In this document: piece by piece, positions 1,431 to 39,940 of the stretch
Layout: every line of letters starts with the position of its first letter
Numbering within the stretch: the stretch's first letter is position 1
NCBI GenBank assembly: GCA_964342815.1
Contig: CAYFHS010000012.1
Span: 42,421-106,420, forward strand
DNA length: 64,000 bases
Direction: 5' to 3'
From: an uncultured archaeon
GTDB taxonomy: Archaea > Thermoplasmatota > Penumbrarchaeia > JASLWR01
The notes under the pieces: model-generated
Seen by the model: only the letters and a program-made list of their open reading frames with translations
The model's database searches: none
Told to the model about the DNA's origin: nothing
Program-made: the position numbers and the translations under genes

Positions 1431-4400
1431 TTATTCCTGGATGTGCTTAATACTCTCCTGAGCCAATCTCAGTGCTTCCTTGTAACGTTCCAGCCCGTAG
1501 GCGGTTCGCGCTTTCCTGAAATAATCCTGGGCCCGTTCATTATCAGTACCCTTTACAATCTCACCTGTGGCATAGAGTACCGTCTTTGCTCTCTGTTCGA
1601 GAAGAGTGTTCCTCTGGTCCTTGAGTTCTTTCAAACACGCCTGGGAAAGTTCGTTCGCGCTTTCAAGGAGACCTCCTGAGAGATAATCCGTGGCCTTTTT
1701 GATATTTTTCTGGATCTTGGTGGTATCTCCTCTCATCCCTTCGACCTCTTCCATTATCGCACTGCAGTTATCGAGAATCCTCCTCAGTTCATCCCGGAAA
1801 ATATCCTTTTCAAGGCCGCCCATGGCATTAATGATGAGGTTTTTAACCTCACCCGCTTTCTCCAATTCTCCCTCTTTAAGGAGAACCAGCAGCTTTTCCA
1901 GATCCCTTCTTGCGTTCAGAACCTCAGCTCCCTTCTCCTCGTATATATCCAGTTCTTTTCTAAGGGCTGTAGCCTCATCCTGCATTATCCGTACCCGGTT
2001 CATGTGAAGAAGCTCGTTAATCACTGATATTGCTTCGCGTATGTTATCATAGGCCAATGCCATGGCTTCCTTGAGGAACAACTTCCGGCTTTCTTCCATA
2101 AGAAGGGTGCCCTGGGAAATGTCGAGATCAATGGCCTCGGCTTTCTCCAATCCTCTCTCAGCCTCCTGGCGGCTGATCAAATATTTCTCGCTCATTATCT
2201 GCCAGTAACTATCCCGAGCGTCCTTCTCAGCTCTTTTGGCCACATTCATTGCGAATTTATACATCCCGGATTCAAACAGACGACCGGCCATATCCAATCT
2301 TTTCAAGTGAACGGCTCCGTCCATATCTCTGGCCTTTGATTGAATAACATTCGTTATCCTTCTAATCTCCTCATTGAACTTCACCCTCCGTCTGCTGTCG
2401 ATTTCCTTTTCAGCCAGATCGATTGCCTCTTCGCAGAGTCCCTGTATCTTCGAGTAATTCCTTTGTCTCTCCGCTTCCTGGGCCTTTATCAGGACTACCT
2501 GTACATCTTTCGCCTCTGAGAATTTTAGGCCCATCAGCCTCATTTTTTCTATAGCAGATGTAATAAAACGGCTCGCCAAGTCCTGTTCATGCCTCTTTAG
2601 GGCCATGTTCGCTCCGTCTTCGGCTCGAATAAAACATTTTTCCGCTTCCTTGAATCCCCCATTTTCAAGTGCTGCTTTTCCCTGAGCAAGCCAATGAAGC
2701 GCGCTGGTGGGGGTAAATTGTTTAGACTTAAGGGCGTTTACCTTGTAAGAAAGATCAAGATAATGGTCAATGTGGTTCTGTTTCGTTACTCTCTGTTCGA
2801 TCTTCTCGATCTGATCACCCAGAAGATTTACGTATCGAAGTCTTTCCACCCACTCCGTCCCGGGTGTATCACTAAATATGTTCAGGTATAATTTATAAAC
2901 ATCAACCCCTACGATACCCCTTTTGAGCAGCTTTTCCACTCCGCCCAACCTGTTGATACGGGCTTTTTGATCTTCAAGTCCTCGTCCGATCTCCGCTTCG
3001 ATAGTTTCGGTTATGAGATCCCGTATCTTTTCAAAATCCACGAAAGCACTGTCTTCTTCGGATCTGGGAACGGCTGGACCTATGCTCGGCAATCCATCCA
3101 GTTTCATTGTGTATTCCCGGATTCTCTCTTCCGGTAGATATTCGGAAACTCGGTCCAATAACCTTCTTACACTTTTTACATTCTTTTGAAACATTGCTTT
3201 TGTTTCTTCATCCTCCAACATTTTAAAGAACTTGCTTAGAGACAATATCGTTTGTGTCAGTTCCTCGGTTATTGGAATGGCAGAATCGTCCCGCAACAAT
3301 CTGAGTTTTTTCATCAGCTCCGTTTCATACCCCTGCCTTTCTCCTGTTGCTATCAATGAGTCTTCGAGTGAGAGAACAGCTTCGGATATATCTGCTGTTT
3401 TCTGCTTGCGGATATTCTGTGCCAGTTGAACTGCTTCCTCCATCAGTTTATAGGCTTTATCCAGCTCGCCGTTCTTAATTAATATTCGTCCTTGATCCAT
3501 CATATTTTTCGGTTCATCCTGGTCAATACCGTCGGCAGCAAGTTCGTCTATCTGCAGTTTTATCCGCTGGTATTTCTCATTCGCCATATTATTTTCATAT
3601 TCGCTCCGTTTCAAATTGAAAAGCTTAATAATTTCCTCGTATGATTCATTCGCCGCGTCGAACTTTCGCTCGATTAACAGTCCCTCAATCTTTTTCATTT
3701 CTTCCTCGAAATGATCCTTTTTTATTGGAAGATTGCTGACTGATTCCCTCAGAGCTTCGATCTTCGTCTGAAGTTCACCCATTACTGTCATCTCGTCGCA
3801 GGCACTTATAAATGATTTCAACTGGTGTGCGCACTTTCTGTGCTTTTCCTCAGCATAATTATCCTTGGCTTTATTCATCATGGATTCGAGGTGACTTATG
3901 TCGAAGGGGAGCTTTCGGATATCTTTCATCAACAATTCCGCCGTATACAAAAGTCCGTTGGCACTATCTTTGAAGAACTGGGCCCTCTTTTCTTTAGCCA
4001 AGGCAATACACTCGGTTCCCTTGGCCAAGCCTTTCTCCGTATCCCCACCATCATACATCTCCCTCGCCTCGGCCAATAGAGCCATGGGTTCTGTTACGTC
4101 GACACCTTCCATACCGTATTTCTTGAGAAGAGCTTCATTTCGTTCAAGATTGGTATCGAGGAGATGAAGCTTGAACGTTGTTTCCTGCTCCCGAGCGCTA
4201 TGAAGTGCGTGTCGTATATCATCCAGTAAGGAACGCTGCTCATCATCGGGTAATTCCGTACGGTCATCCAGGGTCTCCCTCAGCTCATTCAGCAATTGTA
4301 GAGATGAGGATATCTCAACTCCCTGTTCTTCGATGCCGCTGCATATATCAGATGTTTTTTCCAGTTCCTCCGATACAATTCTCAGATTGTGCCTGTTCTT

Positions 4401-7400
4401 AAGCTTAACAAGGGTCGTCGCCGCTTTTTTGACATAGATCTCTGCCTCGTCCAGAACACCTTTATCCACTAGGAGCTGGCTCATATCCATGAAGGATTTT
4501 TCCTCTTTCATCTCTATCTTGGATACGCCCATCTCCTTGAGATTATCATAAATGATCTTGTTTTTTATGATCATACCGTTTATCTTCGTTTTCAAGTAAT
4601 TGAACCTTGCAGCGGTGATGGTCTTCTTAGCGTTTTCCAGCAGATTGATCGATTTATCATAATCCTCTCTTTTGAATTCTCGTTTACCTTTATCGAACAA
4701 TGAGGAGCCTTCGGATACATCCACTCCGATGTTACGGGCTTCTTCCTGCAATGTTCTGATACTGTCTATGGACAGTAGAATTTCTTGGCGCCTCTTTTCG
4801 AAAGCTGCTTTCTCGATCCCCTTTTGAAACCATTCTATACTAGGTCCGTAGTGTTCTTTGTCAAGCAATTTATCCCCTTTCTGAATATAAACCATGAGAG
4901 GAGAGGTTGCGCCACCCAGTTCTTCGATCTCGGCTATAATATCTTCGAGCAGCCTTTTTGTGGAGATTGCTTTGCGTTTCATGTATTCCCGGCTTCGATC
5001 CCTTACATCGTCCTCGAACTGGACGATACGTGCCAATATCTCGGTTGAAACTTCTTCCTTTACGCCATTGTATAGTTCATTCAATCGGTTAAAATAATCC
5101 GTAAGATCAAAACCTCCTCCGGAGTCCTTTTCTATGAACTCCACCACCCCCTTGCTTCTTGAGAGACGATCCAAGGCGATTTCCAGGTCGTACTCCCTTT
5201 CCCTTTTCATCCCTTCTTTAATTGCCAGCTTACAGTATGCCTCCACCTCGATGAAATTGTTCTTCTTAAATAATTCAACTGCATCACGATAGAGGTCGCT
5301 CATCAGCTCCGTGTCAACGCCTTTGGCTAAAAGACGGTCCAATTCCTCCTTGACGCTGTCCAAAGAAGTTTGGGAATTTCCCAGCTTATGATCGAGCTCA
5401 AGGGAATCCCTTATCTTCTTCACTTTATCTATTATCCGGTATGTCTCATCAAAGATTCCTTTGGAAAGGTTGGAATTCGCACTCACCAGAAGAGTTTCCA
5501 TCTCCATGGTGTCAACCCCCTCTTCGCTTAGGCTACGCTTTTTCTGTTCCAGTTCATCCAAGAATACACGGACCTTACCACGGTGGAACTCGATCTCTAT
5601 CTCCCTGATATCTTTCTGCCTCTTCAATATTGCGGACCTTGCTTCGGAGAAGGAACCTTTGGATATCATCCGCTTTATTTTCAGTAATTTACCATCCATT
5701 CCCGTTACATCGGCACCTCGGTTAGCAAGTTCGAAAAGAGCGTCCTCCAATTCGTATAACTGGGTCAATAAGCGATTGGTCACGAAAAAATCCCTGGCGG
5801 ATTCAGCCTCGGTCCATCCTTTTTTCAAAAGTTCCGACGTGACATTGTATTCCTTCTGCTCAAGGTAATCTGTACTTTTATCAACTATCGAATACAGAGA
5901 AGAAACATCAACATCCTTTTTGGAAAATTTGTCCAGGAGAGCCTTGAATTCACCGATCTCTTTACGATAGAAATCATCCCTGTATGCATGGAATTTTTCA
6001 TTCATCTCATTATCGAGCTTTTCGAGGGTTTCTTTGGCATTATCGAAATCGGCCGCATCCAGCATAACTGCCACCTGGGACAGAACATCTTTTTCTTCTT
6101 TAAGCTCCATACCTTCATTTTCCAGTTCAGCGTGCCGGTCCATAAGAATTTGGCTTTTTTTCTGCAGTGTACCAAGTCTCCTTCTTACCTTTATCTTGCT
6201 AGACAATTCTTCGCCGAGCTCATATGCCTCTTTATACTTCTGTTCAGTGAAATATTCCTTCACGCGGTCCAGTTGTACCCGGAAGGAGGAGATGTCCTGG
6301 CCGACCTCAAGCAATTCGCGAAAGGCGATCTTCGTTTCCGATATGATATCCAAAGACCTTTCCTGGTAATAATATTCTCGCAACCTTGAAGATATCTCCA
6401 AGGCCTGATCCAGATCCTTTGAGGCTGTCGCCATCTCTTTCAATTCAATCTTCTTCTTTGCATCTTCAAGTATCATTTCCAGTTCAGCAGTATCTATGGA
6501 TGCTTCTTTCCACTTACCAATGTCCCTGAAAATCCCGTCATAGGTCTCTTTGAAAACCGAACTCTTAGTAAGTATATAACTGTTCTCCGCCTTCTTTCGT
6601 GCTTCCGTTAGAATGGCCTTGGCCTCTTCATAATTGCCTTTCTTGTGAGCATCGGCCGCGTCTTCCAGTGCACCCTTTACTTCATCAAGCTGGATTCCCT
6701 CGGTTTCAAGCTCATTATACCGATCTTGCATTTCCTTTAATTTTTCAGCGGATTGCCCCCCCAGATATTCCTGTTTCTTCTCCGTAATGGATTCCATTAT
6801 CTTGTTCATAATGGGAGCCAGGTCTCCAAAATCGTCATTTTCGACTTTTGTCTTTGCATCGTTCAGCCGTTCCTCCAATGAACTAATATCCACTCCGCCC
6901 CGCTGAAGCGCTTTGATCAGGGTATGATAGTCGAGTAACGTATCAAGGTACATCTTGCGAAAGAAATCCGTTTTCGTGTTCTTAGCTGAATCGAAAGCAT
7001 CCTTGACTATTTGAAAACCCGCCTCCATATCCTTACCCCGTATCTTGAGATCGGCCAATTGCAAAAGTTTCTCCGCCTTTATTACCTTCAATCCTTTTTC
7101 CTTCAATTCTGATATGATGGAATCAGTATCTCCCTTGATCTTGTCTATCTTCATGAGCAGGTGGGCTCCCCAGGTTTCGTTCAATAATTCTTCCGCGGTC
7201 CTTAATGCTTCATTAGCACTGTTGTAATCTCCACTTTGTAATATACTTCGTCCCTTGTTGAAGGAGAGCCATGCCTTGGAAACATCGACATCCTTCTTCG
7301 CTATTTCCTCAAGGCGTTTTTCGGTCTCGTCAAACTTCTTTTTCGACTCAGTAAGCTTGTGATGACTGATCATTTTTTCGGATAAATTTTTTACCTTTTC

Positions 7401-8777
7401 CGTAAGTTCGTCTATACGCCGGTAATCGTATTCCTTGAAGGCTTTCTGCGCTTCAGCGAGCATGTCCGTTACTTCTTTTAAGGGTAGGCCGAGTATTTTC
7501 AATTTCCTTATATCGACCTGAATTGATGAGATATCGCTGCTTCCCTTCTTGATTCTCATGTTATTTTTTTCCTTGAGAAGTTCGAGAGAGATATTCTCCA
7601 GCATATTCTCGCATTCCAAATATTTTTTCATGGCCGCATTCTGTGCCACACCTGCAAGCTTCGATTTCAACTCATCAAGTTCTAAACCGGACTTCTCCAG
7701 TTGTTCTATCTTCAGGGTATATTCTTCTATCTTTGAAAAAATCTTACCCTTATAGAACTTGTGCTTCACGTCCATAGCCGTATTGATAGCATCGTCCGAT
7801 CTCTCTATTGATTCGTCATATTTTTTTTCTTTGAAGAGGTTCTTTGCCATCCCGAGTTTTTCCAATGGTTCTGTGGACCCCTGAGCCGATTCTCCCATTT
7901 GATCAACAACATATTTGGCCCGGGCTAGTCGCTCCTGGGCTGCCTTGATCTTCACTCTGTCCTTAAGTCGAGAAATAATGATATAGCAGCTCGAAATAAT
8001 GTCCCGGGTGCCCACAATATCTCCGTTATCCAGGGCTTGTTTACCGTTCTGCAACCTTATATTGACCGCTTTTACTCCGGCACCTAATCTTTCAAGTTGT
8101 TCAACCTCGCTCTCAATGGATCCCAGTTCTTCAAGAAGAGACTGCATCTCACCGTATTTACTTTCCTCTGAGCATCTGTTCAATACTTCATATGCCATTT
8201 CTGTAGCCTTATCAAGTTCATCGTTCTCGGCTAATTCCCTACTTTTTTCAAGCATACCTTGCAGCCTGCCATCAGAATCATTAATGAATTTTTTATGGCT
8301 AGCAGTCTCCGCCCTGGTAATCAATCCCATAATCTTTTTCTTATCAATCCGTCTACGAACTTTTACAATACTACTAACACCAATTTCTAGAAATTTATTA
8401 GCTTCATCATAATGTCCCAGGATCAACTCATCCTCGCCTCTCGCAAGATATTCACGTACTTCAGCGACATCAATATTCTGGGAAAATGATCGGATGAAAT
8501 CTTTTATTTCAGCCACCTTGTTCCCAACTATTTGGATGATACCCTCGCTTTTCCTGTGTTCCCCTATTGTACAGGCATCGGTTGCCTTTGCGGTGGCTAA
8601 AGCGACGTTGCCCTTTGAAATCGCGACCCTAGCCTCTCCTAAAAGGTCATTTACTTCAGTGGCTTCGATGGAGAGGCTCTTCAATTCCCGGTACAGCTCT
8701 TCACCTAGCGAAAGCAGCTCCTCAGCTACTGTGACACCTTGACCGGTCCCATTGGTCCGATTGGTTCCAACTCCCAT
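1431..8777 (-). CDS. giant (2448 aa) cytoplasmic all-helical tandem-repeat protein, function unknown
   Basis: Uninterrupted 7.3-kb ORF with an ATG preceded by AAGGAGGG. No signal peptide, TM segment or ATPase motifs. E/K/L/A/D-rich helical composition built from 66-aa repeats. Confidence 0.9.
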   Translation of the reverse strand: MGVGTNRTNGTGQGVTVAEELLSLGEELYRELKSLSIEATEVNDLLGEARVAISKGNVALATAKATDACTIGEHRKSEGIIQIVGNKVAEIKDFIRSFSQNIDVAEVREYLARGEDELILGHYDEANKFLEIGVSSIVKVRRRIDKKKIMGLITRAETASHKKFINDSDGRLQGMLEKSRELAENDELDKATEMAYEVLNRCSEESKYGEMQSLLEELGSIESEVEQLERLGAGVKAVNIRLQNGKQALDNGDIVGTRDIISSCYIIISRLKDRVKIKAAQERLARAKYVVDQMGESAQGSTEPLEKLGMAKNLFKEKKYDESIERSDDAINTAMDVKHKFYKGKIFSKIEEYTLKIEQLEKSGLELDELKSKLAGVAQNAAMKKYLECENMLENISLELLKEKNNMRIKKGSSDISSIQVDIRKLKILGLPLKEVTDMLAEAQKAFKEYDYRRIDELTEKVKNLSEKMISHHKLTESKKKFDETEKRLEEIAKKDVDVSKAWLSFNKGRSILQSGDYNSANEALRTAEELLNETWGAHLLMKIDKIKGDTDSIISELKEKGLKVIKAEKLLQLADLKIRGKDMEAGFQIVKDAFDSAKNTKTDFFRKMYLDTLLDYHTLIKALQRGGVDISSLEERLNDAKTKVENDDFGDLAPIMNKIMESITEKKQEYLGGQSAEKLKEMQDRYNELETEGIQLDEVKGALEDAADAHKKGNYEEAKAILTEARKKAENSYILTKSSVFKETYDGIFRDIGKWKEASIDTAELEMILEDAKKKIELKEMATASKDLDQALEISSRLREYYYQERSLDIISETKIAFRELLEVGQDISSFRVQLDRVKEYFTEQKYKEAYELGEELSSKIKVRRRLGTLQKKSQILMDRHAELENEGMELKEEKDVLSQVAVMLDAADFDNAKETLEKLDNEMNEKFHAYRDDFYRKEIGEFKALLDKFSKKDVDVSSLYSIVDKSTDYLEQKEYNVTSELLKKGWTEAESARDFFVTNRLLTQLYELEDALFELANRGADVTGMDGKLLKIKRMISKGSFSEARSAILKRQKDIREIEIEFHRGKVRVFLDELEQKKRSLSEEGVDTMEMETLLVSANSNLSKGIFDETYRIIDKVKKIRDSLELDHKLGNSQTSLDSVKEELDRLLAKGVDTELMSDLYRDAVELFKKNNFIEVEAYCKLAIKEGMKREREYDLEIALDRLSRSKGVVEFIEKDSGGGFDLTDYFNRLNELYNGVKEEVSTEILARIVQFEDDVRDRSREYMKRKAISTKRLLEDIIAEIEELGGATSPLMVYIQKGDKLLDKEHYGPSIEWFQKGIEKAAFEKRRQEILLSIDSIRTLQEEARNIGVDVSEGSSLFDKGKREFKREDYDKSINLLENAKKTITAARFNYLKTKINGMIIKNKIIYDNLKEMGVSKIEMKEEKSFMDMSQLLVDKGVLDEAEIYVKKAATTLVKLKNRHNLRIVSEELEKTSDICSGIEEQGVEISSSLQLLNELRETLDDRTELPDDEQRSLLDDIRHALHSAREQETTFKLHLLDTNLERNEALLKKYGMEGVDVTEPMALLAEAREMYDGGDTEKGLAKGTECIALAKEKRAQFFKDSANGLLYTAELLMKDIRKLPFDISHLESMMNKAKDNYAEEKHRKCAHQLKSFISACDEMTVMGELQTKIEALRESVSNLPIKKDHFEEEMKKIEGLLIERKFDAANESYEEIIKLFNLKRSEYENNMANEKYQRIKLQIDELAADGIDQDEPKNMMDQGRILIKNGELDKAYKLMEEAVQLAQNIRKQKTADISEAVLSLEDSLIATGERQGYETELMKKLRLLRDDSAIPITEELTQTILSLSKFFKMLEDEETKAMFQKNVKSVRRLLDRVSEYLPEERIREYTMKLDGLPSIGPAVPRSEEDSAFVDFEKIRDLITETIEAEIGRGLEDQKARINRLGGVEKLLKRGIVGVDVYKLYLNIFSDTPGTEWVERLRYVNLLGDQIEKIEQRVTKQNHIDHYLDLSYKVNALKSKQFTPTSALHWLAQGKAALENGGFKEAEKCFIRAEDGANMALKRHEQDLASRFITSAIEKMRLMGLKFSEAKDVQVVLIKAQEAERQRNYSKIQGLCEEAIDLAEKEIDSRRRVKFNEEIRRITNVIQSKARDMDGAVHLKRLDMAGRLFESGMYKFAMNVAKRAEKDARDSYWQIMSEKYLISRQEAERGLEKAEAIDLDISQGTLLMEESRKLFLKEAMALAYDNIREAISVINELLHMNRVRIMQDEATALRKELDIYEEKGAEVLNARRDLEKLLVLLKEGELEKAGEVKNLIINAMGGLEKDIFRDELRRILDNCSAIMEEVEGMRGDTTKIQKNIKKATDYLSGGLLESANELSQACLKELKDQRNTLLEQRAKTVLYATGEIVKGTDNERAQDYFRKARTAYGLERYKEALRLAQESIKHIQE
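1434..8678 (-). repeat. about 37 tandem copies of a 66-residue protein repeat (G-[VIL]-[DE]-[VIL] ... LLxxA ... G-[DN]-[YF]-xx-A ... long helix)
   Basis: I registered the motif by hand at residues 34, 100, 166, 232, 298, 364, 430, 496, 562, 628, 694, 760, 826, 889, 955, 1021, 1087, 1153, ~1221, 1288, 1351, 1417 and 1486. Spacing is exactly 66 in 17 of 22 intervals and 63-69 in the rest. The pattern continues to the C-terminus (...ERYKEALRLAQESIKHIQE). Confidence 0.85.
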
Positions 8778-14597: not shown

Positions 14598-15236
14598 ATG
14601 AAAAAAAGACTGTGTATTGGAATATTCCTCACCCTTTTTTTTATATTCCACCCACGCATGGTAATAAGCGAGAATTCAATAAACTATATTCAGATCAACA
14701 TAAGCAATTATAATAGATGCGAATCCCGAGCGACTGCGGTTTACATTACCCCTGCCGAGAACACGAGTTATGAATACCAAGCGGATACAGAGAACAAGAC
14801 CATAGCGAGGATATGGATGAAGATAGTTTGTGAAAAATACAATCCATTGGAGACTGTAACTATAGAACCGGAGGCGGAAACTGGCGGTTGGGAGCATTCA
14901 TTGGTTCCGGATACCATAGAGGTCACAGAGAACGGCCAAAGCGAACATCCGTTCGTTCTCATATTGATTGTACCTCCAATGGAGAAGAACACAACCAAGG
15001 AGATTATGTTCAGTGGGTCCTACATAGCTCTTGGAGGAGGAACGTATAAACTACCCGAAACTGGGGCAGAATATACGTTTTTTGTCAATGAGACACTTGA
15101 TATAAGGGAAGAATCCAAAAACGAGGTGAAAACGAATGGTGGATTTTCCACAGTAGCGGTAATCACGATCATCGGGATCGCCTTGATACTGGTACTTATA
15201 TCCATCGAAATCTTCTGGCGCAGGAAGAGGAAATAG
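14598..15236 (+). CDS. small secreted, C-terminally TM-anchored surface protein
   Basis: 212 aa. GGGGGTG RBS before the ATG, a signal-like N-terminus (MKKRLCIGIFLTLFFIF), N-glycosylation sequons, and a C-terminal TM followed by the basic tail WRRKRK. Confidence 0.55.
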   Translation: MKKRLCIGIFLTLFFIFHPRMVISENSINYIQINISNYNRCESRATAVYITPAENTSYEYQADTENKTIARIWMKIVCEKYNPLETVTIEPEAETGGWEHSLVPDTIEVTENGQSEHPFVLILIVPPMEKNTTKEIMFSGSYIALGGGTYKLPETGAEYTFFVNETLDIREESKNEVKTNGGFSTVAVITIIGIALILVLISIEIFWRRKRK

Positions 15237-31220: not shown

Positions 31221-31234
31221 TTTCCTTTTTTTTA
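31221..31234 (+). terminator. oligo-T tract between convergent genes (candidate archaeal terminator)
   Basis: TTTTCCTTTTTTTT lies immediately after the TAA at 31216-31218. Composition and position are the only evidence. Confidence 0.3.
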
Positions 31235-32011
31235 TTTATCCTGGGATTCATTTCCCGTCTTTTTCTGAATAGCTATCGCCTCAAGAAGATCAAGTTCACC
31301 TATGGCCACCCGGGCTGCCAGCGTACGTGATATCGTCACAAATGAGCCGCTTCTTATCCGGCTGATCCTCTGAATATCTTTTAATTCACCCGGGGTGGGA
31401 TTGATATTCATATAACTCTCCACGGGGGAGCCGGGCATAGAAGATATTTCGATAGCAGCATTGATATGAGGATCGTGCTTCAAGCGTGTCGTGCTGGTCT
31501 CATCTGCGATCTCAAGGATAAACTCATTTTTTTTCCTCAGCTCCAAAAGGTCGTTTATGATACGATTCCGGATAGTTACAGCCTGGTGACCCACCTTGAC
31601 CTTTCTATTTTCCGCATCATATGTGTAAAAGACCTTCTCGACGATAACAGAAACCTCTTGGGGTGAATAACATTTGTACTGGTTAATCAACTCACCGTCC
31701 CCAATTACCGCCACACCGGGAGACTTGCCCGGATCCACTCCTATCACCAAATACTTGATCCTAACGCGACCGCGGAGTATCTCAAGGGCCCGATCAACCA
31801 TTCGAGGGATATCACCCTCTGTTTCCACTATGATCTTTCGTGGAAAATCGATCTCTTCCATGCAGGACCGGGTTGTGATAACCACACCAACATTGTAGGG
31901 GATCGGCTCGCCCCCCGCAAGGGATATAAAACTGATATTTTTCCTCTTCAATTCCCTTATCAATCCGTAATACAGTCGAAATTCATCTGTAATAAGGGCC
32001 ATTATCTTCAT
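31232..32011 (-). CDS. RNase H-fold (RuvC/YqgF-like, DUF460-like) putative nuclease with a C-terminal helical DNA-binding-like tail
   Basis: 259 aa. LVIGVDPGKSPGVAVIGDG is a RuvC-type first acidic motif; later come EIADETSTT and HDPHINAAIE. An N-terminal alpha/beta domain of about 85 aa precedes these. Confidence 0.5.
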   Translation of the reverse strand: MKIMALITDEFRLYYGLIRELKRKNISFISLAGGEPIPYNVGVVITTRSCMEEIDFPRKIIVETEGDIPRMVDRALEILRGRVRIKYLVIGVDPGKSPGVAVIGDGELINQYKCYSPQEVSVIVEKVFYTYDAENRKVKVGHQAVTIRNRIINDLLELRKKNEFILEIADETSTTRLKHDPHINAAIEISSMPGSPVESYMNINPTPGELKDIQRISRIRSGSFVTISRTLAARVAIGELDLLEAIAIQKKTGNESQDK

Positions 32012-32053
32012 GGTGCATCCCGGCGGTCAATGGAATCAACTCAAACTTTTACA

Positions 32054-33916
32054 TCACTCACCCCAGTCAACCGCGCCTTCCACGATATAATCCTCGTCAA
32101 AGAACTCCTCCTGGGAACCTACGAAAACGTTGGTCTTTTCCTTTAGCTGAAACGCCCTTCCATCCATGGCCCGCATTCCCCTGGTGGCAAAGGTAAGTCG
32201 GTTCTGCCCGAGGTTCTGGAATCTAAGTTTCATTCTCTCGCTGTGGGAAGCCTGACCCTTTATTTCCGCTATCTTCCTGAAACCTTTCTGGTCCACCACT
32301 CCGGAGACCTTTAACATGATCTCTTTTATATGGGTATTCGAATTGTTCTTAATAGTTATCTCCGCAGGTACCCAATCCTCAACCCTTGAGGCCTCCTCCA
32401 GTAGATTAATATTAACGTCGATATCTATCTCCTTCATCTCCATTTCCCTGAAGAATTGTTCGATCTGACCAACTTCCCTTTTGACATCCATTGCTTTCCC
32501 TTTCTTGTAGGCATTCATAGCCTTCTCCAAATGGTCTGTAATATCCTTTGGAACCATGCAAACCTTTTCGAAGCTCTTCAACTTTTCCTTGAGAGCCTTG
32601 AGTTCGATGCCCCCTTCCCGCTTCTCCTGTTCCTTCCGAGAATGTCTCGCTCGGGCTCTGGATAATGCGGAATATGTGGCCGTGATGTATTCCTGTATCT
32701 TTTTGTAATCTTCCGCGGTCTTTGCTTGTTCCATCTTCTCGATGATCTTCTCCACCAGGTTCTCAGCATCCTCGATATCCACGCCCTTTGAGCGGTCCTG
32801 CTGAAGCTCGCCGTTTAGAGCCATGAGGGCATTTCTAACGTTGGCGTACATATTCTCCATATTGGAGCGCTGCCTCCAATCGATCTCGTCCTTTACAATA
32901 TCCAACTCGACACTGGACTGCCGGGCATATTCCTCGGCCATCTTGAAATCCGATGCCAAGAGCATGCGGTTGGCTTCCCCCAGTATCGATTCAGCTTGGT
33001 AAACGTTCACTCCCAGGTTCTTGGCGAGGTATAACCGGGAAGAAACTCCCTCAACCTTATTCAATGTCTTCTGGTAAGTCTTGACGTGGGATTCGATCAA
33101 GGGTCCAGCTTTTTGTGCGAGATCTATGGCTGTGAAGAAATCTGCATTGTAAACCGCATATTCCGCCTGAGATAGGGTTTCCTGGACGTTGGAAAAGATA
33201 ATATCCGGTTGGAGCGATATCTCGTAATAGGAATCCTGAATCAATTTATTGACGTATTCGGTCTGGGCTACATCTAGTAGTTTCGTAAAATTCTCCATTT
33301 CCTTGTAAGCGTTATTCAGGTCATTTGCCTTGATATGGACGTTTATAATTTCCAGTTTATCAGGCATTTCCGGATTTTCTATCTCAAGTTTTTTGCACTG
33401 CTCATACCTGCGTATCAATTCATCTAGATAGGTCGATATCTGAGAATATCTCTGATATATATCCTCAGTCAGAGTCCATGCCTGACTTGCGTATAACATA
33501 GCTGCCTCATGGTCGTGCAGTTTCATCTTGCTACGCAGTGCTGCCAGCAGCCTCAGGGGTTTTTTCATATCCATACCCAGCTCCGTATATTTCTTGATAT
33601 TAGCGAGGCTCTGTTCAACCGTTGCGATTATTTCCTGGACTTTCAGATCGATATTATGAGCAGTATTCTTTGCCTTATTCAGACGATTTCCCACCGCAAT
33701 GTAGTCCTTCATACCCCTGCAACGCGTGAACTGGCTCTTGGCGGACAACAATTCCTGTTTCGAAGCACTGACGTCCACACCGTCTGCGGCCAAAGACAAG
33801 AGATATGCATCCATCTCGACAAATTCGTTCTCCAGGTACTCCTTGAACTTTTTTGTCTTTGCAAGTATCTCCATAGTTTTCGTAACCTTTGCACGAAATT
33901 CATCGCTCTCATCCAT
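32054..33916 (-). CDS. cytoplasmic helical-repeat protein (paralog of the 66-aa repeat family) with a C-terminal CARDB-like Ig domain
   Basis: 620 aa with no signal peptide or TM. Seven repeats carry the same G-V-D-V ... LL..A ... [DN]-[YF]..A grammar (GVDVSASKQELLSAK, GMDMKKPLRLLAAL, GVNVYQAESILGEA, GVDIEDAENLVEKI) at spacings of 59-78 aa. The C-terminal beta domain reads ...VPAEITIKNNSNTHIKEIMLKVSG... and the protein ends in the acidic EEFFDEDYIVEGAVDWGE. Confidence 0.8.
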   Translation of the reverse strand: MDESDEFRAKVTKTMEILAKTKKFKEYLENEFVEMDAYLLSLAADGVDVSASKQELLSAKSQFTRCRGMKDYIAVGNRLNKAKNTAHNIDLKVQEIIATVEQSLANIKKYTELGMDMKKPLRLLAALRSKMKLHDHEAAMLYASQAWTLTEDIYQRYSQISTYLDELIRRYEQCKKLEIENPEMPDKLEIINVHIKANDLNNAYKEMENFTKLLDVAQTEYVNKLIQDSYYEISLQPDIIFSNVQETLSQAEYAVYNADFFTAIDLAQKAGPLIESHVKTYQKTLNKVEGVSSRLYLAKNLGVNVYQAESILGEANRMLLASDFKMAEEYARQSSVELDIVKDEIDWRQRSNMENMYANVRNALMALNGELQQDRSKGVDIEDAENLVEKIIEKMEQAKTAEDYKKIQEYITATYSALSRARARHSRKEQEKREGGIELKALKEKLKSFEKVCMVPKDITDHLEKAMNAYKKGKAMDVKREVGQIEQFFREMEMKEIDIDVNINLLEEASRVEDWVPAEITIKNNSNTHIKEIMLKVSGVVDQKGFRKIAEIKGQASHSERMKLRFQNLGQNRLTFATRGMRAMDGRAFQLKEKTNVFVGSQEEFFDEDYIVEGAVDWGE

Positions 33917-33929
33917 AAAAAAGCTCCCT

Positions 33930-36900
33930 CTACTTCAGCTTGATCCTAAACTCGTTTTCGATATCTTCCAGCATGTTCTCCGCCTCCTGCACACCAACAC
34001 CCTTGCCGGTAGCCTCCTTAATGGTCTTTTTAACCTCTTGGAGGACCTTTTTCCTTCTTCTTTTCCTTAAAAATACAGAGATTACAAAGAAAGCGATAAT
34101 AATTATGAAAGCAAAGGCAATGGAGAGCAAAAACACCCAGGAGCTGGCATCCTGTTTCACTTCAAGGTCCATATTCAGTTTCCCGCCGTCCAGGATCGTA
34201 ACGGTGGAGTATTTTGAATCCTTCACAATAATCGAGATATTATGTTTTCCTGACTGGGCTTCCCATATTGCAGTTGCAGTCCTCGTTTCCCCGGGGAATA
34301 TATGTGGGAACCAGATAACCCGAATCCTGGTTCCGTCCACCATGAAAGTAACGTTCACGTTCCTCGCTGCAGCGGTACCATTGTTCTTGATATGAACATT
34401 CAAGTGGACATCATCCCCTTCCATATACTCCCCTTGGTCCACGGGGACGAAGATGAGCTCCAACAGCGGGGCAGTGATGAAAATCTCGATATTTCTTATC
34501 TCTGACCAGGCACCGTCATCGTCCTCGACGCTGAATGTAATAATATGAAGACCCAGTGAGATATTGTGCCTGGAACGCAGATCCAGGTTCGAAAAATTTC
34601 CCAATTTACCGTCGACGCTCGAAACCCACAAATAGTCTCGGATATAACCTTTTTCGTACACCGCCTCATCAACTCCCCACCCTGATATCTTCATATTGCT
34701 TCCTCCCTTTTCCATTTCCCTCGATCGGGATTGGATAAAAGCAACTGGAATGTCATTGACCTCAAGGACCTTCAACGTGAACGTAAAGCTGCTCATCTCA
34801 CCAGATGGGTCAACCGCGGATACGGTTATCTCTATTTCCCCGAACCAGTTGAGGGTGGGTTCCAACCTCAGCGAGTTGTTCTCCATTATTGAAAGGTTGA
34901 TCTCTGCAAATCCTGATTGGGCAACATACAACAGTTCCAGGTCATCGGGATCGGAAAAACAATCACCAACATCCAAATAACCCGTAGTATCCTCTTTTAT
35001 GGTTACGATTTTCTCAAAACCGATGATGTCCGGTTTATCATTTACAAGGCTTACCATGAAAGAGATTGTATGATGAGCTTCGTCCTGTCCGTCGCTGGCT
35101 GTAAAAGTAATATTCTCCTTACCGTACCAGTTGTGAGCGGTTGTAATATTCACGATTCCAGACGAAATGATATTAATGATAATATTGGATGAATTGGTAA
35201 AGTTAACAGCAAGAATATCCTCGTCTATATCATAGAATATATCCGTCATATCGATTTGGTATATGGTATCATTATCCTCCTCGAGTTGAATTTCTTTTGG
35301 AGCTCCGTCGAATACCATGGGTGGATCATTCACATTCTCCCAGCTGAAGTTGAAAAATTCCTCCACGTAATCTCCGTCCTTGTCCGTGAACTTCATTAGA
35401 ACGCTTGAGTTTCCGTGAAAATTATTAATAGGATTGAAAACGAATTTGTTCGGCCCATCACCTGGCGTTACCGAGCCTATCTTGAATTTATTGAAGGTCT
35501 CAAGAGTCCAAGTTGTTTGAAGTGGATCTCTCCCGTCCTCCACGTCCCACCCGTATACGTTGAAATCCACGTTGATGGCGTGGTCTTCGAGAGAAGTAAA
35601 GGTCGGCGTAGAATTGATCATGGGAAAATTATTCACTGCCTTGAATGCTCTCAATTTCCAATCCGAGATGAAACCACTAGGATTGGTATATCTAAGCCGG
35701 AGGTCCAGTATGGTATTTATGGGTATATCCAGCGGTGGGGTGTAGCTAGAGTAGAAGTAAACCAATTCTCCATCGTCATAGAGTTCAACGGGCAATTCAT
35801 TCCAACCGCCCTCGGTATCGCCAAGCCAGATCTGGAGAGTGAGGTTCAGACCGCTTTCCCCGAATACGACATCGGTAAGATTCATTGTAATGGGAATGGC
35901 TTTTCCACGGTAGGCTATGGGTTCATGGCTGATGTCCAGCACTTTTGGATATATTACTTCGATGGTATCATTGATCGTAGTTCCTCTGTTACCCGCAACG
36001 TCTTCTGCCCATACGTAAATGTGATGTTTCCCTTCAGGGGCATCTAAAATATAATTCGTTTTATTGGTCCAGATGCCGTTATCGGTTCCACTACCATCGA
36101 AAAAGGAGATGTAATATCCCTTTATCTGTGAAGATGGAGCCGCATCGGAAAATCCGCTCCAGTTGAGGTAGATTGTCTTGTCCGAGCAATACTCGGATTT
36201 GTTCTCTATCTCAAGGGAAGCAGACGTTGACGAGGGTGCAATGGTATCAATGAAAATATCGTCCGATACGGCATCACCAATATTGAAAGAATAATCCTGT
36301 GCCCAGGCGTAAACCGTTGTGGGACCCTGATTAGGGAGTGAAATGTAATCGGTAGGCTGCCCGCCCCACAACCTGCTTGCGGGGATGACCGGTGGGGCCC
36401 CTGCGGTCCCCCATTTTTCCCATTTTGCTGCAACAGCGGCTCCACCATTGTGTTCGTAATAGTGCATTTCGAATCTATGGAAACCGCGTTCTAGATAGAC
36501 GCTGACGGTGTTTTCCGTATAGGCCCTGCTGTACCAATGGCTCAGTAACCTGACGTCATCGATATAAAGGCGTGCACCGTCGTCAGATCCTATGGTGAAA
36601 TTGTATGTAGTGGATTCATCCGCGAAAATGGAGCCGTTCCAGATTATCGAATATTGGTTGTTGCCGCAGCCGCCTCCGGGCCCGCCGTTGCCGAAATTCC
36701 GATTTATTGTGCCATCATACCTGCTGAACTTGTACTCGTTGAAGTTCATTCCATTAAAATAATGGCCCCTTATGCCGCCATTGGATATCTGACCGCTCAT
36801 TGTACCTTCATTATTTGTCGTCCCGAAATAATATCCTGCCAAACCCCTGGTGGCATCGTTATTGTCTGAAAAACCTGACCATCGGACCTGAGCAACTGTA

Positions 36901-39683
36901 GAATTCCAATACGTTAGATCGTTCTGAAGTACTATACTACCGGTAGAAGGTTCAACCAAATCAATTAAAATATTTCTGTAGAGTGCACGGTTTTGAATAT
37001 TACCTGCCCGGTCCACACCCCAAACCCAGAAATTCACCCATCCCGTCTCAGCGGTATTTATAACGCCAGTTGCCCCTTGAATGAAAAATCCGTTGCTCGT
37101 TCCACTGTTATTAACATGATTATAGTAATAACCGGATAGGCCGGATTGGTCTACCCCTGAATCAACTATATTGGAAATGCGATAATAAACATTTTTGTCA
37201 TTTGTATATCGGCTCCCGTTCTCCAACCTTAAACTTGCTCCACCGGTAAATGTTGGACGGACAGTATCAATATGAATTGAATCCGAAACTGCAATGCTGT
37301 AATGCCCGTATGCATCCTTGGCCCACACGTAAACCACGACATTCTTCCGGACCGGGGCATTGTGAATATCCACGTTGGTTTCAGTGGTATAATTGGCATC
37401 CGGTCCGCCGGACCCGTTCACGAACGAATAATAGTAACCGGTCAGCGTTGGATCGCTGAAACCTCCCCAGCTGAGATGAAGTGTCCTATCATTGGTCCAT
37501 TCGTCCCCGTTGTTTATCAACAGCCACGCATTCGAGATGTCGGGAACAAAGGCATCGATATAGATAGAGTCCTCCGTTGCATTTCCGATATTACCAGCAT
37601 TATCCACCGCCCAGACGTAAATTGTGACGGTCCCGTTTACTGCCGAAGCGGCGGTAGCATTGGTGCTGGCCGTGTAGACTCCGTTTGGCGTCCCGCTTCC
37701 ATTGGTGAAATTATAATAATATCCTTTTATACCTGCTCCCCCGGAATCGGTAAAATTGCTCCACTCGAAAAAAATATTGTTGCTACCGACATTTTCAGCG
37801 CCGCTCTCGATGATGACGTTGGCATTGGAGTTATCGGGATTCTCAAAATCCACCTGTACGGTATATTTCTGTGATGCCGTCGGGCCGTTGGTGATATCAT
37901 CGGTTCCCCGCCACTGTATGTAATTGCTGCCCCCCGCGGCGAATTCCACATTGGCCGAGGCTGAAAAAAGCTGCTGGGCAGCGCCTGCGTCACCTGTTGA
38001 GATCCACTGGCTGAGCGTCCCGTTGAAATATCGGTATTCAATGGTATTCAAGCGTACTCCCGAGGTATTGTCCCTTATATCGATCCCGCAAGTAACCATA
38101 CTTTCGTTCACCCAGTCATTTGGCGATGGGGACGGGTTCTCGAAGAATATTTCAGACGTATCCACCATTATCGTATCCGTAGCCGAAATTCCGATATTAC
38201 CTGCCTTGTCAATGGCCCATACATACACGTTCACAGTCCCGTCCTGTGCATTGGAAAGGACACCTGGACTGGAGTAATCCACGGTTCCGTTGGTGCTTCC
38301 CTGATTATTATCGAATGAATAGTAATAATGATCAATACCTGAGATTTCCGCTCCCTGGTCGATAAAGCTGGACCAAGTGAATGCCAGGTTAGAAACGTTT
38401 GTTCCGGCCGCACCGCCGTTAATTATGACATTATTGGGAGGAATGTAGGATGGTGCGCTGGTATCGAGTATTATTGTATCATTTTTCGATGATCCTATGT
38501 TACCCACATTATCCTCGGCCCATAGGTACACTGTGATTATACCCTCAACTAGGTTAGAATCAGCAATGGAAGATTGGTTTCCGTTCGTTGTATTGGTGTC
38601 CACCTTCCCCTCGTCATTGGTAAACGAATAGTAATATCGTTTTGTTCCCGAATCCGAATCCACGCTGGCATTCCAGGTTACATAGAAGGTTGTGTCGTTA
38701 TCCGCCAGAGTCCGGTTGTCTCCGAAGGAATCTGCGTGAATGGTAATATTCCCGGGCCCCGGTGGAGCCTCACCGTCCACCCTGATAATAAATGTCTGAT
38801 TTGCAGGTACGTTACCGGCTCTTCCCACAGGTAGCTTGTTTACCGAAACATTGTAATTGTTCGAGTTTTCCGAAACTGGGGCCGAGCTCATGAGGATGCT
38901 GAAGGCCTGACCCGAGGAACTGTTATTGTATGCAACAGCTCCAGTATCGTTTGTTACCGATACATTGAAATATTGATTTGATGGATAAAATACCGGAAAA
39001 CCGGTGTAATGGACCTTTGGGCCGGAAAAGGTCAGATTCTCATTGGTTCGTACCCAATCCCCACTAGCAATGGAACCCTGGTGCTGAGCAGCCACAGTCA
39101 GTGTTCCAGACATATCGAGTCCGGTTTCCACCCTAAATAGATTTGGAAAATTCGTGCTGTTTGTATTGTTCGAGGCGTCCGTTATATTCAACCTTATATC
39201 ACATAATGCCGCGTCAGGGAAGGTCCAGTTGAAATCCACATGGAAATTTACGAAGGTGTTGTTAGCATCAGTATCTCCCCAATGGGTATCGTTGGAACTC
39301 AGATTTATATAGTCTTGAGTATCTCCGCCATCCAGCTCGTAAAAATGTGTTGCGTTATCCCTTGACCAGCAAAGGGTGATGTTCTCGTCTCCAGGCTCGA
39401 TGGTGATATTCACATATTTGATATCATTGGCTCCATCGGTATCATTGATGGTGGCGTTGAAGTGGTATGATTTGAATCTTGCGAGGCATACGTCTCCCAG
39501 CTCGCCGTTCTCGAGAACGAGATCCTCGATGTCCGGCTCGGCCTGTCCCAGTTGCGGACCAATATCTGCAATTGAAAGAAATGATAGAATATCCAATCCG
39601 GAAAGGAGAAAAAGAACCGTAACCGACAAGATGAGAATAGGTTTCACAGTGGAAAAGCAATAGGATTTTTTTTTCGTCATCAT
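33930..39683 (-). CDS. giant PA14-domain surface adhesin, C-terminally TM-anchored
   Basis: The track ORF begins at TTG 39695; ATG 39683 (MMTKKK...) with a GGGTG spacer is preferred, giving 1917 aa. Signal/anchor ILILSVTVLFLLSGL, seven modules of about 105 aa, a PA14 domain, three cadherin-like modules ending VNDxP, PKD-like and CARDB-like domains, a TM, and a basic tail. Confidence 0.9.
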   Translation of the reverse strand: MMTKKKSYCFSTVKPILILSVTVLFLLSGLDILSFLSIADIGPQLGQAEPDIEDLVLENGELGDVCLARFKSYHFNATINDTDGANDIKYVNITIEPGDENITLCWSRDNATHFYELDGGDTQDYINLSSNDTHWGDTDANNTFVNFHVDFNWTFPDAALCDIRLNITDASNNTNSTNFPNLFRVETGLDMSGTLTVAAQHQGSIASGDWVRTNENLTFSGPKVHYTGFPVFYPSNQYFNVSVTNDTGAVAYNNSSSGQAFSILMSSAPVSENSNNYNVSVNKLPVGRAGNVPANQTFIIRVDGEAPPGPGNITIHADSFGDNRTLADNDTTFYVTWNASVDSDSGTKRYYYSFTNDEGKVDTNTTNGNQSSIADSNLVEGIITVYLWAEDNVGNIGSSKNDTIILDTSAPSYIPPNNVIINGGAAGTNVSNLAFTWSSFIDQGAEISGIDHYYYSFDNNQGSTNGTVDYSSPGVLSNAQDGTVNVYVWAIDKAGNIGISATDTIMVDTSEIFFENPSPSPNDWVNESMVTCGIDIRDNTSGVRLNTIEYRYFNGTLSQWISTGDAGAAQQLFSASANVEFAAGGSNYIQWRGTDDITNGPTASQKYTVQVDFENPDNSNANVIIESGAENVGSNNIFFEWSNFTDSGGAGIKGYYYNFTNGSGTPNGVYTASTNATAASAVNGTVTIYVWAVDNAGNIGNATEDSIYIDAFVPDISNAWLLINNGDEWTNDRTLHLSWGGFSDPTLTGYYYSFVNGSGGPDANYTTETNVDIHNAPVRKNVVVYVWAKDAYGHYSIAVSDSIHIDTVRPTFTGGASLRLENGSRYTNDKNVYYRISNIVDSGVDQSGLSGYYYNHVNNSGTSNGFFIQGATGVINTAETGWVNFWVWGVDRAGNIQNRALYRNILIDLVEPSTGSIVLQNDLTYWNSTVAQVRWSGFSDNNDATRGLAGYYFGTTNNEGTMSGQISNGGIRGHYFNGMNFNEYKFSRYDGTINRNFGNGGPGGGCGNNQYSIIWNGSIFADESTTYNFTIGSDDGARLYIDDVRLLSHWYSRAYTENTVSVYLERGFHRFEMHYYEHNGGAAVAAKWEKWGTAGAPPVIPASRLWGGQPTDYISLPNQGPTTVYAWAQDYSFNIGDAVSDDIFIDTIAPSSTSASLEIENKSEYCSDKTIYLNWSGFSDAAPSSQIKGYYISFFDGSGTDNGIWTNKTNYILDAPEGKHHIYVWAEDVAGNRGTTINDTIEVIYPKVLDISHEPIAYRGKAIPITMNLTDVVFGESGLNLTLQIWLGDTEGGWNELPVELYDDGELVYFYSSYTPPLDIPINTILDLRLRYTNPSGFISDWKLRAFKAVNNFPMINSTPTFTSLEDHAINVDFNVYGWDVEDGRDPLQTTWTLETFNKFKIGSVTPGDGPNKFVFNPINNFHGNSSVLMKFTDKDGDYVEEFFNFSWENVNDPPMVFDGAPKEIQLEEDNDTIYQIDMTDIFYDIDEDILAVNFTNSSNIIINIISSGIVNITTAHNWYGKENITFTASDGQDEAHHTISFMVSLVNDKPDIIGFEKIVTIKEDTTGYLDVGDCFSDPDDLELLYVAQSGFAEINLSIMENNSLRLEPTLNWFGEIEITVSAVDPSGEMSSFTFTLKVLEVNDIPVAFIQSRSREMEKGGSNMKISGWGVDEAVYEKGYIRDYLWVSSVDGKLGNFSNLDLRSRHNISLGLHIITFSVEDDDGAWSEIRNIEIFITAPLLELIFVPVDQGEYMEGDDVHLNVHIKNNGTAAARNVNVTFMVDGTRIRVIWFPHIFPGETRTATAIWEAQSGKHNISIIVKDSKYSTVTILDGGKLNMDLEVKQDASSWVFLLSIAFAFIIIIAFFVISVFLRKRRRKKVLQEVKKTIKEATGKGVGVQEAENMLEDIENEFRIKLK
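35946..38798 (-). repeat. seven tandem Ig-like modules of about 105 aa in the adhesin (G-Y-Y-Y-x-F ... N-G ... V-Y-V-W-A-x-D-x-A-G-N-x-G ... D-T-x-x-P)
   Basis: The aligned signatures are RYYYSFTNDEGK...VYLWAEDNVGNIG, HYYYSFDNNQGS...VYVWAIDKAGNIG, GYYYNFTNGSGT...IYVWAVDNAGNIG, GYYYSFVNGSGG...VYVWAKDAYGHYS, GYYYNHVNNSGT...FWVWGVDRAGNIQ, GYYFGTTNNEGT...VYAWAQDYSFNIG and GYYISFFDGSGT...IYVWAEDVAGNRG. Confidence 0.75.
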
Positions 39684-39940
39684 ATGTACACCCAAAAAAT
39701 CTGGAAATGGTAGAGACCTATGAATACATGTTACAATGTTGCTGCTGTTTATCTACTATTATCAGACAATATTTCGATTCCAGTAATACAATCGGTATAT
39801 AAAATATCTGGTATATTATATATTAATTGTTGAACAAATTCTAAATCCATATCCCTTTTATTTTCTCGTTCATTATATACTTCAAAATTTTAGGGAAAGT
39901 GGATTTCAATGATGGGCCAATTTTTCAATTCAGCATTGCG

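Follow-up and report, generated by a model that had tools for sequence, protein, structure and literature searches.

How might a giant surface protein of an archaeon be connected to structures beneath its membrane? To our knowledge, no archaeal surface protein has been demonstrated to be tied to a cytoplasmic scaffold through its tail, yet a locus in an uncultured member of the Thermoplasmatota (contig CAYFHS010000012.1) raises the question directly. We analysed a stretch of 64,000 nucleotides (nt) from this contig, hereafter the window, in which genes for a PA14-containing adhesin, for a repeat protein that we call p620 and for a smaller protein, p259, lie head to tail on the minus strand in the order adhesin, p620, p259 (Table 1). 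An earlier reading of the letters alone (the sequence-only reading) had noticed that the short cytoplasmic tail of the adhesin resembles half a unit of the 66-amino-acid (aa) repeat from which p620 and a distant giant protein are built, and had suggested a physical link between the two. Here, we find that the adhesin and p620 are a real, conserved and undescribed two-gene module in a small clade of marine Thermoplasmatota; in the literature on related archaeal systems we found no description of the pair. That the tail docks on p620 is a proposal that we put forward tentatively.

The adhesin is an ordinary surface protein of the PA14/CARDB/Big_9 class. An N-terminal hydrophobic signal or anchor is followed by repeated beta modules, PA14, a Big_9/cadherin-like domain, CARDB, a single transmembrane (TM) helix and the tail. 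Besides PA14 (PF07691) and CARDB, whose scores are given in Table 1, Big_9 lies above its Pfam cut-off (40.1 bits; cut-off 23.6), and the same ectodomain Pfam domains are present in the orthologues of the adhesin. Its only hydrophobic segments are aa 8-41 and aa 1845-1875, and a hydropathy scan of p620, the giant and p259 revealed none. The adhesin carries 65 N-x-S/T sequons where about 29 would be expected, and p620 carries 2 where about 3 would be expected. Taken together, the hydrophobic segments and the sequon counts place the body of the adhesin outside the cell, its tail inside and p620, which has neither a TM helix nor a signal peptide, in the cytoplasm, which is the arrangement that the sequence-only reading had assumed. 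With its N-terminal signal, single C-terminal TM helix and cytoplasmic basic residues, the adhesin has the features of a type-I membrane-anchored surface protein. It does not have those of an archaeosortase substrate: a PGF-CTERM-type signal consists of a PGF-like motif ahead of the TM helix and a very short basic tail, whereas the adhesin sequence shows no PGF motif and its tail is 45 aa long and conserved.

The 66-aa unit has two hallmarks, a G-[VI]-D-[VI] turn and, about 23 residues further on, a [DN]-[YF]-x-x-A turn. A profile seeded from nine units of the giant marked about 30 stretches in the giant itself and also found units of p620 at aa 40-89 and 183-228 (independent E-values 7.6e-5 and 3.7e-5); once iterated, it comprised 18 giant units and 2 p620 units. 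Since p620 units are recovered by a profile made from the giant only, the claim that the two proteins share one repeat grammar was correct. The AlphaFold2 model of p620, built with six orthologues, agrees with it: a long helix (~42 aa) and a short one (~15 aa), each followed by a turn, alternate seven times with a period of about 66 aa, and the mean predicted local distance difference test score (pLDDT) of 76 rises to 85-95 over aa 10-280. Conservation within the protein is highest in units 5-6 (aa 298-430). When the model was compared with the PDB by Foldseek, only generic sandwiches of the immunoglobulin (Ig)/FnIII type were returned, for its low-confidence C-terminal domain (GH3 C-terminal domain, TRAP subunits, ASF1), and nothing matched the rod. 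Likewise, no Pfam or NCBIfam model reached its cut-off on p620, be it TPR/Sel1/HEAT, FERM, PTB, ankyrin, an ATPase or a targeting domain, and the giant gave only sub-threshold Pfam matches to TPR_2, TPR_12 and HEAT_Nup120.

The full tail of the adhesin reads RKRRRKKVLQEVKKTIKEATGKGVGVQEAENMLEDIENEFRIKLK up to the stop codon, and the 38 residues past RKRRRKK are VLQEVKKTIKEATGKGVGVQEAENMLEDIENEFRIKLK. Residues 11-40 align in register to positions 1-30 of the repeat, a segment that comprises the final 12 residues of the long helix, then the G-V-x-V turn and the short helix. Against the combined repeat profile the tail scores 13.7 bits, a value reached by just 1 in 5000 shuffles that preserved its composition, and with the giant-only profile it scores 14.6 bits. 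In a scan of the window with the repeat profile, which covered open reading frames (ORFs) of at least 200 aa, the tail was the sole match above 3 bits among the other 26 ORFs; and alignment of six orthologous tails to the repeat units by hhalign gave P=4.3e-5 and a probability of 69%. Within p620, the unit closest to the tail is unit 6 (KGVDIEDAENLVEKI, against KGVGVQEAENMLEDI in the tail).

The reciprocal search points the same way. A profile made from seven tails alone, run against six-frame translations of the window and of the compared loci L001-L019, ranked the adhesins first and then, as the best non-adhesin match, the p620 orthologue of every lineage (E 9e-5 to 6), in which the matches coincide with the G-V-D turns around aa 47-65, 290-318 and 368-397. 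No other surface protein in these sequences was matched, and the giant was not matched at E<10, though it is four times longer than p620. At least four other surface proteins in the window are laid out like the adhesin: the N-terminus is signal-like, the ectodomain is large, and a single C-terminal TM helix comes with a basic stop-transfer sequence. Given that their tails are unrelated (Table 1), the G-V-G hairpin tail is specific to the adhesin that is linked to p620. A search of 5.8 billion proteins with the tail profile yielded nothing but a fragment, 51 aa long, from a close orthologue; since it missed the known adhesins, it was uninformative. By these sequence comparisons, the similarity between tail and repeat is beyond chance, and the observation that the tail reproduces the opening of the repeat unit has held up.

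Among the three things on which the idea of a link had been staked beforehand were that orthologous adhesins keep the tail motif and that the repeat gene stays adjacent in other genomes, and both of these were found. The gene upstream of p620 could be read in seven lineages (the window, L008/L017, L007, L006, L004/L005, L001-L003 and L010/L011). In all seven, a PA14/CARDB adhesin ends just ahead of p620 on the same strand, with a spacer of 6-13 nt in six lineages and of 67 nt in one (L010). The genes around the pair vary: UvrD lies downstream in L004, a 308-aa gene on the opposite strand is found in L001, and genes for a glycosyltransferase, PheRS and isochorismatase lie upstream in L010. The eighth lineage, L012, is uninformative in this respect because its contig of 2.9 kb holds only 124 nt of AT-rich sequence upstream of p620. 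That sequence (L012:1-124), which precedes the most distant p620 orthologue, consists of imperfect 'acacataatata' low-complexity repeats with stops in all frames.

All seven tails follow one plan: a basic stop-transfer sequence, an amphipathic helix, a G-V-[GA] turn and then E-[AV]-[KE]-x-x-L-x-x-[ILVT]-x-x-[EK]-[FYH]. Six of the seven end in [GRK]-I-[KR]-L-K, the tail of L010 having K-I at its very end. G23, V24, E28, L33 and I42 are invariant, and hydrophobic residues recur every 3-4 residues in both helices. The ratio of nonsynonymous to synonymous substitution rates (dN/dS) in the tail is 0.13-0.29 (Nei-Gojobori, 45 codons), with synonymous sites near saturation; these low values indicate that selection maintains the tail. 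The pair is found in few genomes. A word-indexed search of 5.8 billion proteins yielded eight relatives of p620 at 62-100% identity, one of them from a source named 'Candidatus Thermoplasmatota archaeon', and two more remote clusters of orthologues, at 35% and 31% identity, emerged from an exhaustive search by HMMER. The clade is rare: scanning with the p620 alignment brought up one locus in a metagenome collection (91% identity) and two in a genome collection, an ETNP metagenome-assembled genome being the nearest relative. Both the pair and the tail motif are retained across the readable lineages although p620 identity drops to 35%.

The junction between the two genes suggests how they are expressed. 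The sequence-only reading had described the ORFs correctly, as it had the 42-nt gap between p620 and p259, but the gap between adhesin and p620 is 13 nt and not 14. The adhesin stop codon is TAG in all six junctions read closely (the window, L008, L007, L006, L004 and L001), and in each of them a Shine-Dalgarno-like GAGG or GGGAG overlaps that stop or lies just past it. The resulting TAG-AGG/GGG arrangement is retained in the five orthologue loci of this close group, with the difference in L001 that the AGG comes ahead of the stop and the stop is displaced two codons downstream. In L008, L007, L006 and L004, the p620 ATG is in frame with the adhesin 12 nt past the stop, and in L001 it is in frame 6 nt past it. 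The window junction is out of frame, its spacer being 13 nt long because a run of T is one base longer than in L008 (T6 against T5), for which a homopolymer length error could conceivably be responsible. Given that the window spacer is out of frame, that L006 has a second in-frame TAG, that the spacer in L010 is 67 nt long and that TAG-AGG makes sense as a Shine-Dalgarno sequence, we rejected stop-codon readthrough, with a fused adhesin-p620 product, as a requirement. We read the TAG-AGG context instead as a putative Shine-Dalgarno site laid over the adhesin stop, and the two genes are probably co-transcribed and translationally coupled. The AT-rich region upstream of the adhesin, with its TATA-like tracts, is the probable promoter of the unit.

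Based on these observations, we propose a model for the adhesin-p620 pair. The adhesin would sit in the membrane as a type-I protein, with a heavily glycosylatable PA14/Ig-like ectodomain outside and the 45-aa tail inside. The tail would fold as a 12-residue helix, the G-V-G turn and a 14-residue helix, both helices with conserved hydrophobic stripes, a copy of the first 30 positions of the 66-aa unit of p620 that is unlikely to be stable alone. To judge from the lengths and order of the helices in the AlphaFold2 model, the equivalent element of the repeat array would pack on the first half of the next long helix, and we suggest that the tail packs against p620 in the same way as one repeat unit packs on the next. 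Such docking would couple the membrane anchor to a rod of some seven units beneath the membrane, and would leave the Ig-like domain and the acidic, Trp-containing C-terminal peptide of p620 free for further partners.

Three sites on p620 are candidates. The N-terminal half-unit is the obvious one geometrically, since the G-to-G distance across the tail/p620 junction would be 68 residues, equal to the spacing from G46 to G114 within p620. Units 5-6, the most conserved region, may offer a second site, as they are also the most tail-like. Thirdly, the C-terminal I-[KR]-L-K of the tail could add as a strand onto the beta-sandwich. We put the chance that tail and p620 are in physical contact, as their sequences lead us to infer, at somewhat below even, and that of any particular binding mode lower again. 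The fullest version of the proposal is unlikely as a whole: in it, the tail would be half a repeat that has become detached and completes the p620 rod by complementation of a repeat unit, forming a mechanical link across the membrane from adhesin to scaffold, and the scaffold might reach other repeat proteins such as the giant through the Ig-like domain and the Trp peptide. In this form, it would be the archaeal equivalent of integrin-talin or of the terminal organelle of Mycoplasma, made from an undescribed repeat family.

Several observations weigh against docking. The tail is not better conserved than the rest of the adhesin (40-53% identity, against 46-53% for the ectodomain), and p620 identity is 62-65% in the pairs where that of the tail is 40-53%. 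The N-terminus of p620, geometrically the obvious candidate site, is not specially conserved. In the close group, L001 and L004, whose tails have diverged most, show only a weak match between tail and repeat (1.0-4.4 bits); with the giant-only profile, five of the seven tails score 6-15 bits and the other two 2-4 bits. A split-unit test was also negative, as the tail joined to p620 residues 1-33 scores 10.6 bits against 14.6 bits for the tail alone, and 99.6% of random 33-mers score at least as high as these p620 residues. The N-terminal capping model, in which the tail and the p620 N-terminus make up one split unit, was therefore set aside: it finds no support in sequence and the profile score falls. 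In addition, all lineages belong to one narrow clade, so that the adjacency of the two genes is in part shared ancestry. Finally, at the loci read, remote members of the repeat family that carry the p620-type beta-sandwich do not lie beside adhesins, which makes p620 a short, RING-less offshoot of that family, specifically associated with one adhesin.

One alternative is a tail that is functional without binding p620. It might lie on the inner leaflet, oligomerise adhesins or bind another repeat protein such as the giant, with p620 co-expressed for some other reason. Purifying selection on the tail and the amphipathic nature of both its helices speak for such a role, the giant-only profile matches the tail as well as any other (14.6 bits), and the N-terminal half-unit of p620 shows no complementary signal. 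However, it is the units of p620 that the tail profile finds, and not the giant at E<10; p620 always travels with the tail, and none of the loci combines the adhesin with a gene of the giant type. We regard such a role as rather unlikely, though it is the alternative that survives best.

A second alternative concerns history rather than present contact. The tail could be the remnant of a repeat array once fused to the membrane anchor, or a captured p620 unit, left behind by gene fission or duplication. The tail does correspond to the start of a unit, p620 does begin at the start of a long helix, and the G-to-G distance of 68 residues runs across the junction; moreover, p620 shares the frame of the adhesin in L008, L007, L006, L004 and L001, where only TAG and 2-4 codons separate them. 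A functionless remnant would be expected to decay, yet the tail has a dN/dS of 0.13-0.29 and its motif survives at 35% p620 identity. The 13-nt spacer of the window is out of frame, that of L010 is 67 nt long, and no fused homologue was seen among the 134 matches of an exhaustive family search, only some of whose sequences were read. A mere relic thus appears improbable. Fission fragments usually still associate, so that an origin of this kind would be compatible with docking.

The same level of doubt attaches to the view that p620 is not a structural anchor but is dedicated to the adhesin as its chaperone, targeting factor or regulator in the cytoplasm, which would hold the C-terminus of the adhesin during insertion or control its turnover. 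The tight translational coupling of the genes, their one-to-one relationship and a tail that is unique to the p620-linked adhesin could all be read in this way. A rigid-looking rod of 620 aa with an Ig-like domain, however, is unlike the known small secretion chaperones, and p620 has no ATPase or recognisable targeting domain; we give this view little credence. As it also needs the tail to be bound, it differs from our model in purpose only. Lastly, the notion that a Lys/Glu-rich helix-Gly-helix resembles a Lys/Glu-rich repeat by composition and secondary structure alone, next to a gene kept there by inherited synteny, can appeal to an alignment of only 30 aa, an hhalign probability of 69%, the weak scores of L001 and L004 and the relatedness of all lineages, but is hard to maintain, and in our view very unlikely, in the face of 1 in 5000 shuffles, a tail that is alone above 3 bits among the other 26 ORFs, a reciprocal profile that recovers p620 in every lineage, a G-V-x turn in register in 7/7 tails and a pair that stays together while its flanks are reshuffled.

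Docking of the tail on p620 thus remains the explanation that we favour for the pair. It does not extend to p259. The sequence-only reading had treated the three genes as one unit, and this holds for the adhesin and p620 but only loosely for the third gene. Directly after p620, p259 is present at 48-76% identity in five lineages (the window, L008/L017, L007, L010/L011 and L012) and missing in the other three of the eight (L001/L003, L004 and L006). Its family, with proteins of ~250 aa, has 87 cluster representatives across the Thermoplasmatota, including Methanomassiliicoccales; homologues that are 41-44% identical are flanked by radical-SAM and NOG1-GTPase genes or adjoin an MFS transporter, and the neighbourhoods read contain neither an adhesin nor a repeat protein. 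Given its absence from three of the eight lineages and the unrelated contexts of its homologues, p259 is not a fixed member of the module. It is a widespread Thermoplasmatota gene that is often adjacent, not a defining part of the unit.

As to what p259 is, its assignment as RuvC/YqgF-like was not borne out at the level of sequence, where matches to DUF460 / RuvC-YqgF stay below the Pfam cut-off (14-19.5 bits against 28), although all four orthologues examined give such a weak match (E 8e-4 to 0.04). The DUF460 matches cover the region of a G-[VI]-D-P-G strand, and p259, without a Pfam family above cut-off, looks like a distant DUF460 relative. The proposed RNase-H-like fold, by contrast, was correct. 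The AlphaFold2 model of p259 (29 sequences; pLDDT 90) has as its best PDB matches by Foldseek an Argonaute PIWI domain, the RuvC-like domain of IS621/IS110 and a retroviral integrase, with modest E-values of 1e-4 to 1e-2 and low template-modelling scores, and among its acidic residues two, D93 and E171, never vary and two more, D170 and D182, are nearly invariant. An extra alpha/beta domain is found at the N-terminus.

The repeat itself reaches well beyond this clade. An exhaustive search found 134 cluster representatives of the p620 repeat family at E<=1e-3, most of them 1400-3100 aa long. In the subset whose sequences were read, members have many 66-aa-type units and a p620-type beta-sandwich, and most also have a C-terminal Cys/His zinc finger (Prok-RING_1, weak), others further domains. 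A 1491-aa member with all three of these features, many units, sandwich and weak Prok-RING_1 finger, is encoded immediately after SMC-ScpA-ScpB, and on their strand, in three assemblies (L013:8001-12476; also L014 and L015), an adjacency which hints that the wider family may have a chromosome- or scaffold-related role. Other remote members adjoin an MFS transporter, a CBS-domain gene or the end of a contig. We found no description of Prok-RING repeat proteins or of the p620 repeat family in the literature.

The acidic C-terminus of p620 has counterparts in this family: several members (P0009, P0010, P0041 and P0077) end in acidic stretches with a single Trp (...SIEWS, ...TVDWA, ...EVDWD and ...GTWLD). 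In p620, W618 is invariant across nine orthologues, and the peptide looks like a short linear docking motif, albeit a putative one. Beyond the shared repeat type, nothing ties the giant to the adhesin at the loci read. Directly upstream of the giant, on the same strand, a 941-aa gene (window 8990-11815) encodes a protein whose N-terminus is signal-like and whose C-terminal region is hydrophobic; a G-V-G hairpin is absent from its C-terminus.

Table 1. Coordinates of the adhesin-p620 locus and of related features in the window.
Feature	Position (nt)	Strand	Description
Adhesin gene	33930..39683	-	1917 aa; ATG at 39683; TAG stop 33930-33932
PA14 domain	36420..36776	-	aa 970-1088; 54.8 bits, cut-off 24
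CARDB domain	34224..34436	-	aa 1750-1820; last extracellular domain before the membrane anchor; 35.1 bits, cut-off 22.7
C-terminal TM helix	34068..34151	-	~aa 1845-1872; Kyte-Doolittle maximum 3.24; followed by RKRRRKK (positive-inside)
Cytoplasmic tail, 45 aa	33933..34067	-	RKRRRKK stop-transfer, amphipathic helix, G-V-G turn, second amphipathic helix, C-terminal F-[GR]-I-[KR]-L-K
Tail motif core GKGVGVQEAENMLEDIENEF	33948..34007	-	with the preceding 12 residues, aligns to repeat profile positions 1-30
TAG stop and 13-nt spacer 'agggagctttttt'	33917..33932	-	GGGAG (Shine-Dalgarno-like) 8 nt before the p620 ATG
AT-rich upstream intergenic region	39684..39940	-	257 nt, with TATA-like tracts; read directly; probable promoter
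p620 gene	32054..33916	-	620 aa, soluble; ~7 repeat units, beta-sandwich, acidic C-terminal peptide
p620 helical rod	32438..33916	-	aa 1-493; long and short helices alternate via G-V-D-V-type turns (AlphaFold2)
p620 beta-sandwich	32120..32422	-	aa 499-599; Ig/FnIII-like, six to seven strands; low confidence, pLDDT 46-64 per 10-residue block
p620 acidic C-terminal peptide	32057..32116	-	aa 601-620; disordered in the model; ends in conserved V-D-W-G-E (...AVDWGE)
p259 gene	31232..32011	-	259 aa; small alpha/beta domain and RNase-H-like domain
Giant	1431..8777	-	2448 aa; 66-aa repeat, at least 18 clear units; 25 kb from the adhesin-p620 pair
Proteins of adhesin-like layout	26816-29902; 43992-47432; 59857-63732; 14598-15236		tails unrelated to one another and to the adhesin tail

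Two further proteins deserve mention. In L010, the three-gene group is followed by a gene for a second giant surface protein, a CARDB/TSP3 protein of 2239 aa (L010:12878-19597), which has a different kind of cytoplasmic tail: its C-terminus is very acidic and ends in a zinc-ribbon-like CSECG...CNMCG. In the window, a 1368-aa protein (17963-22069) has a signal-like N-terminus and, at its other end, a long low-complexity stretch rich in Gln and Ala (...QQYQTLQQQSAAIQQQLQQ...), and the surrounding 2-kb block has an unusually high AT skew (0.376 at 20001-22000).

If the tail docks on p620, the pair would offer a compact two-gene model of how archaeal adhesion outside the cell is coupled to structure or signalling inside it. 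It would represent a new type of link, in which a membrane protein carries a fragment of the repeat of its partner. Docking would also provide the first functional handle on a large uncharacterised family, that of the helical repeat and beta-sandwich with or without a RING-like zinc finger, with its 134 representatives. If binding fails, what is left is a tidy conserved operon pair in a narrow, uncultured clade of marine Thermoplasmatota, of modest interest. The narrowness of the clade, and the fact that it is uncultured, limit immediate experimental reach.

How, then, does the locus compare with systems already known? p259 is akin to DUF460 / RuvC-YqgF proteins in its weak DUF460 matches, its RNase-H-like model and its conserved acidic residues, and differs from them in scores that stay below cut-off and in its extra N-terminal alpha/beta domain; we know of no activity for it. 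The adhesin shares with PA14/CARDB/Big_9 surface adhesins its domains, signal-like N-terminus, C-terminal TM helix and basic stop-transfer sequence, whereas the conserved 45-aa hairpin tail and the dedicated repeat protein encoded downstream are foreign to that class. p620 can be compared with the archaeal proteins of ~1500 aa that combine helical repeats, a beta-sandwich and Prok-RING_1. They have the same type of repeat and sandwich (P0011, E 2e-30), and several (P0041, P0077) have an acidic, Trp-containing C-terminus like that of p620. In contrast to p620, which is short, RING-less and adhesin-linked, they are far longer, carry a C-terminal zinc finger and lie beside SMC-ScpA-ScpB or other genes.

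Spectrin comes to mind because, in the AlphaFold2 model, p620 has long helices common to neighbouring units and a short return helix that together make a rod of small helical bundles. The period, however, is 66 aa against ~106 aa, and only a few orthologues give weak spectrin matches (best E 0.003-0.02), all of them sub-cut-off. With that period, those matches and no rod match in the PDB, p620 was rejected as a member of the spectrin-repeat family.

Other analogies lie in how a surface protein is anchored from within. In the Mycoplasma terminal organelle, the adhesins P1 and P110/P140 are tied to internal rod proteins such as HMW1/HMW2, and there, as proposed here, giant surface adhesins have cytoplasmic ends that meet a scaffold rich in helices or coiled coils. 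The two systems belong to different domains of life and to different protein families, and no homology between them was found; in the archaeal case, the partners are a one-to-one operon pair and the tail copies the repeat of its partner. Integrin beta-tails with talin, like spectrin with ankyrin, join a single-pass adhesion protein with a short conserved cytoplasmic tail to an elongated partner of helical bundles. We know of no actin-like partner for the adhesin-p620 pair, which has no sequence or domain in common with these systems, p620 being without FERM, PTB or ankyrin. The logic that we propose for the adhesin tail and p620 is nonetheless the same, with the difference that recognition would rest on mimicry of a repeat unit and not on an NPxY-type peptide.

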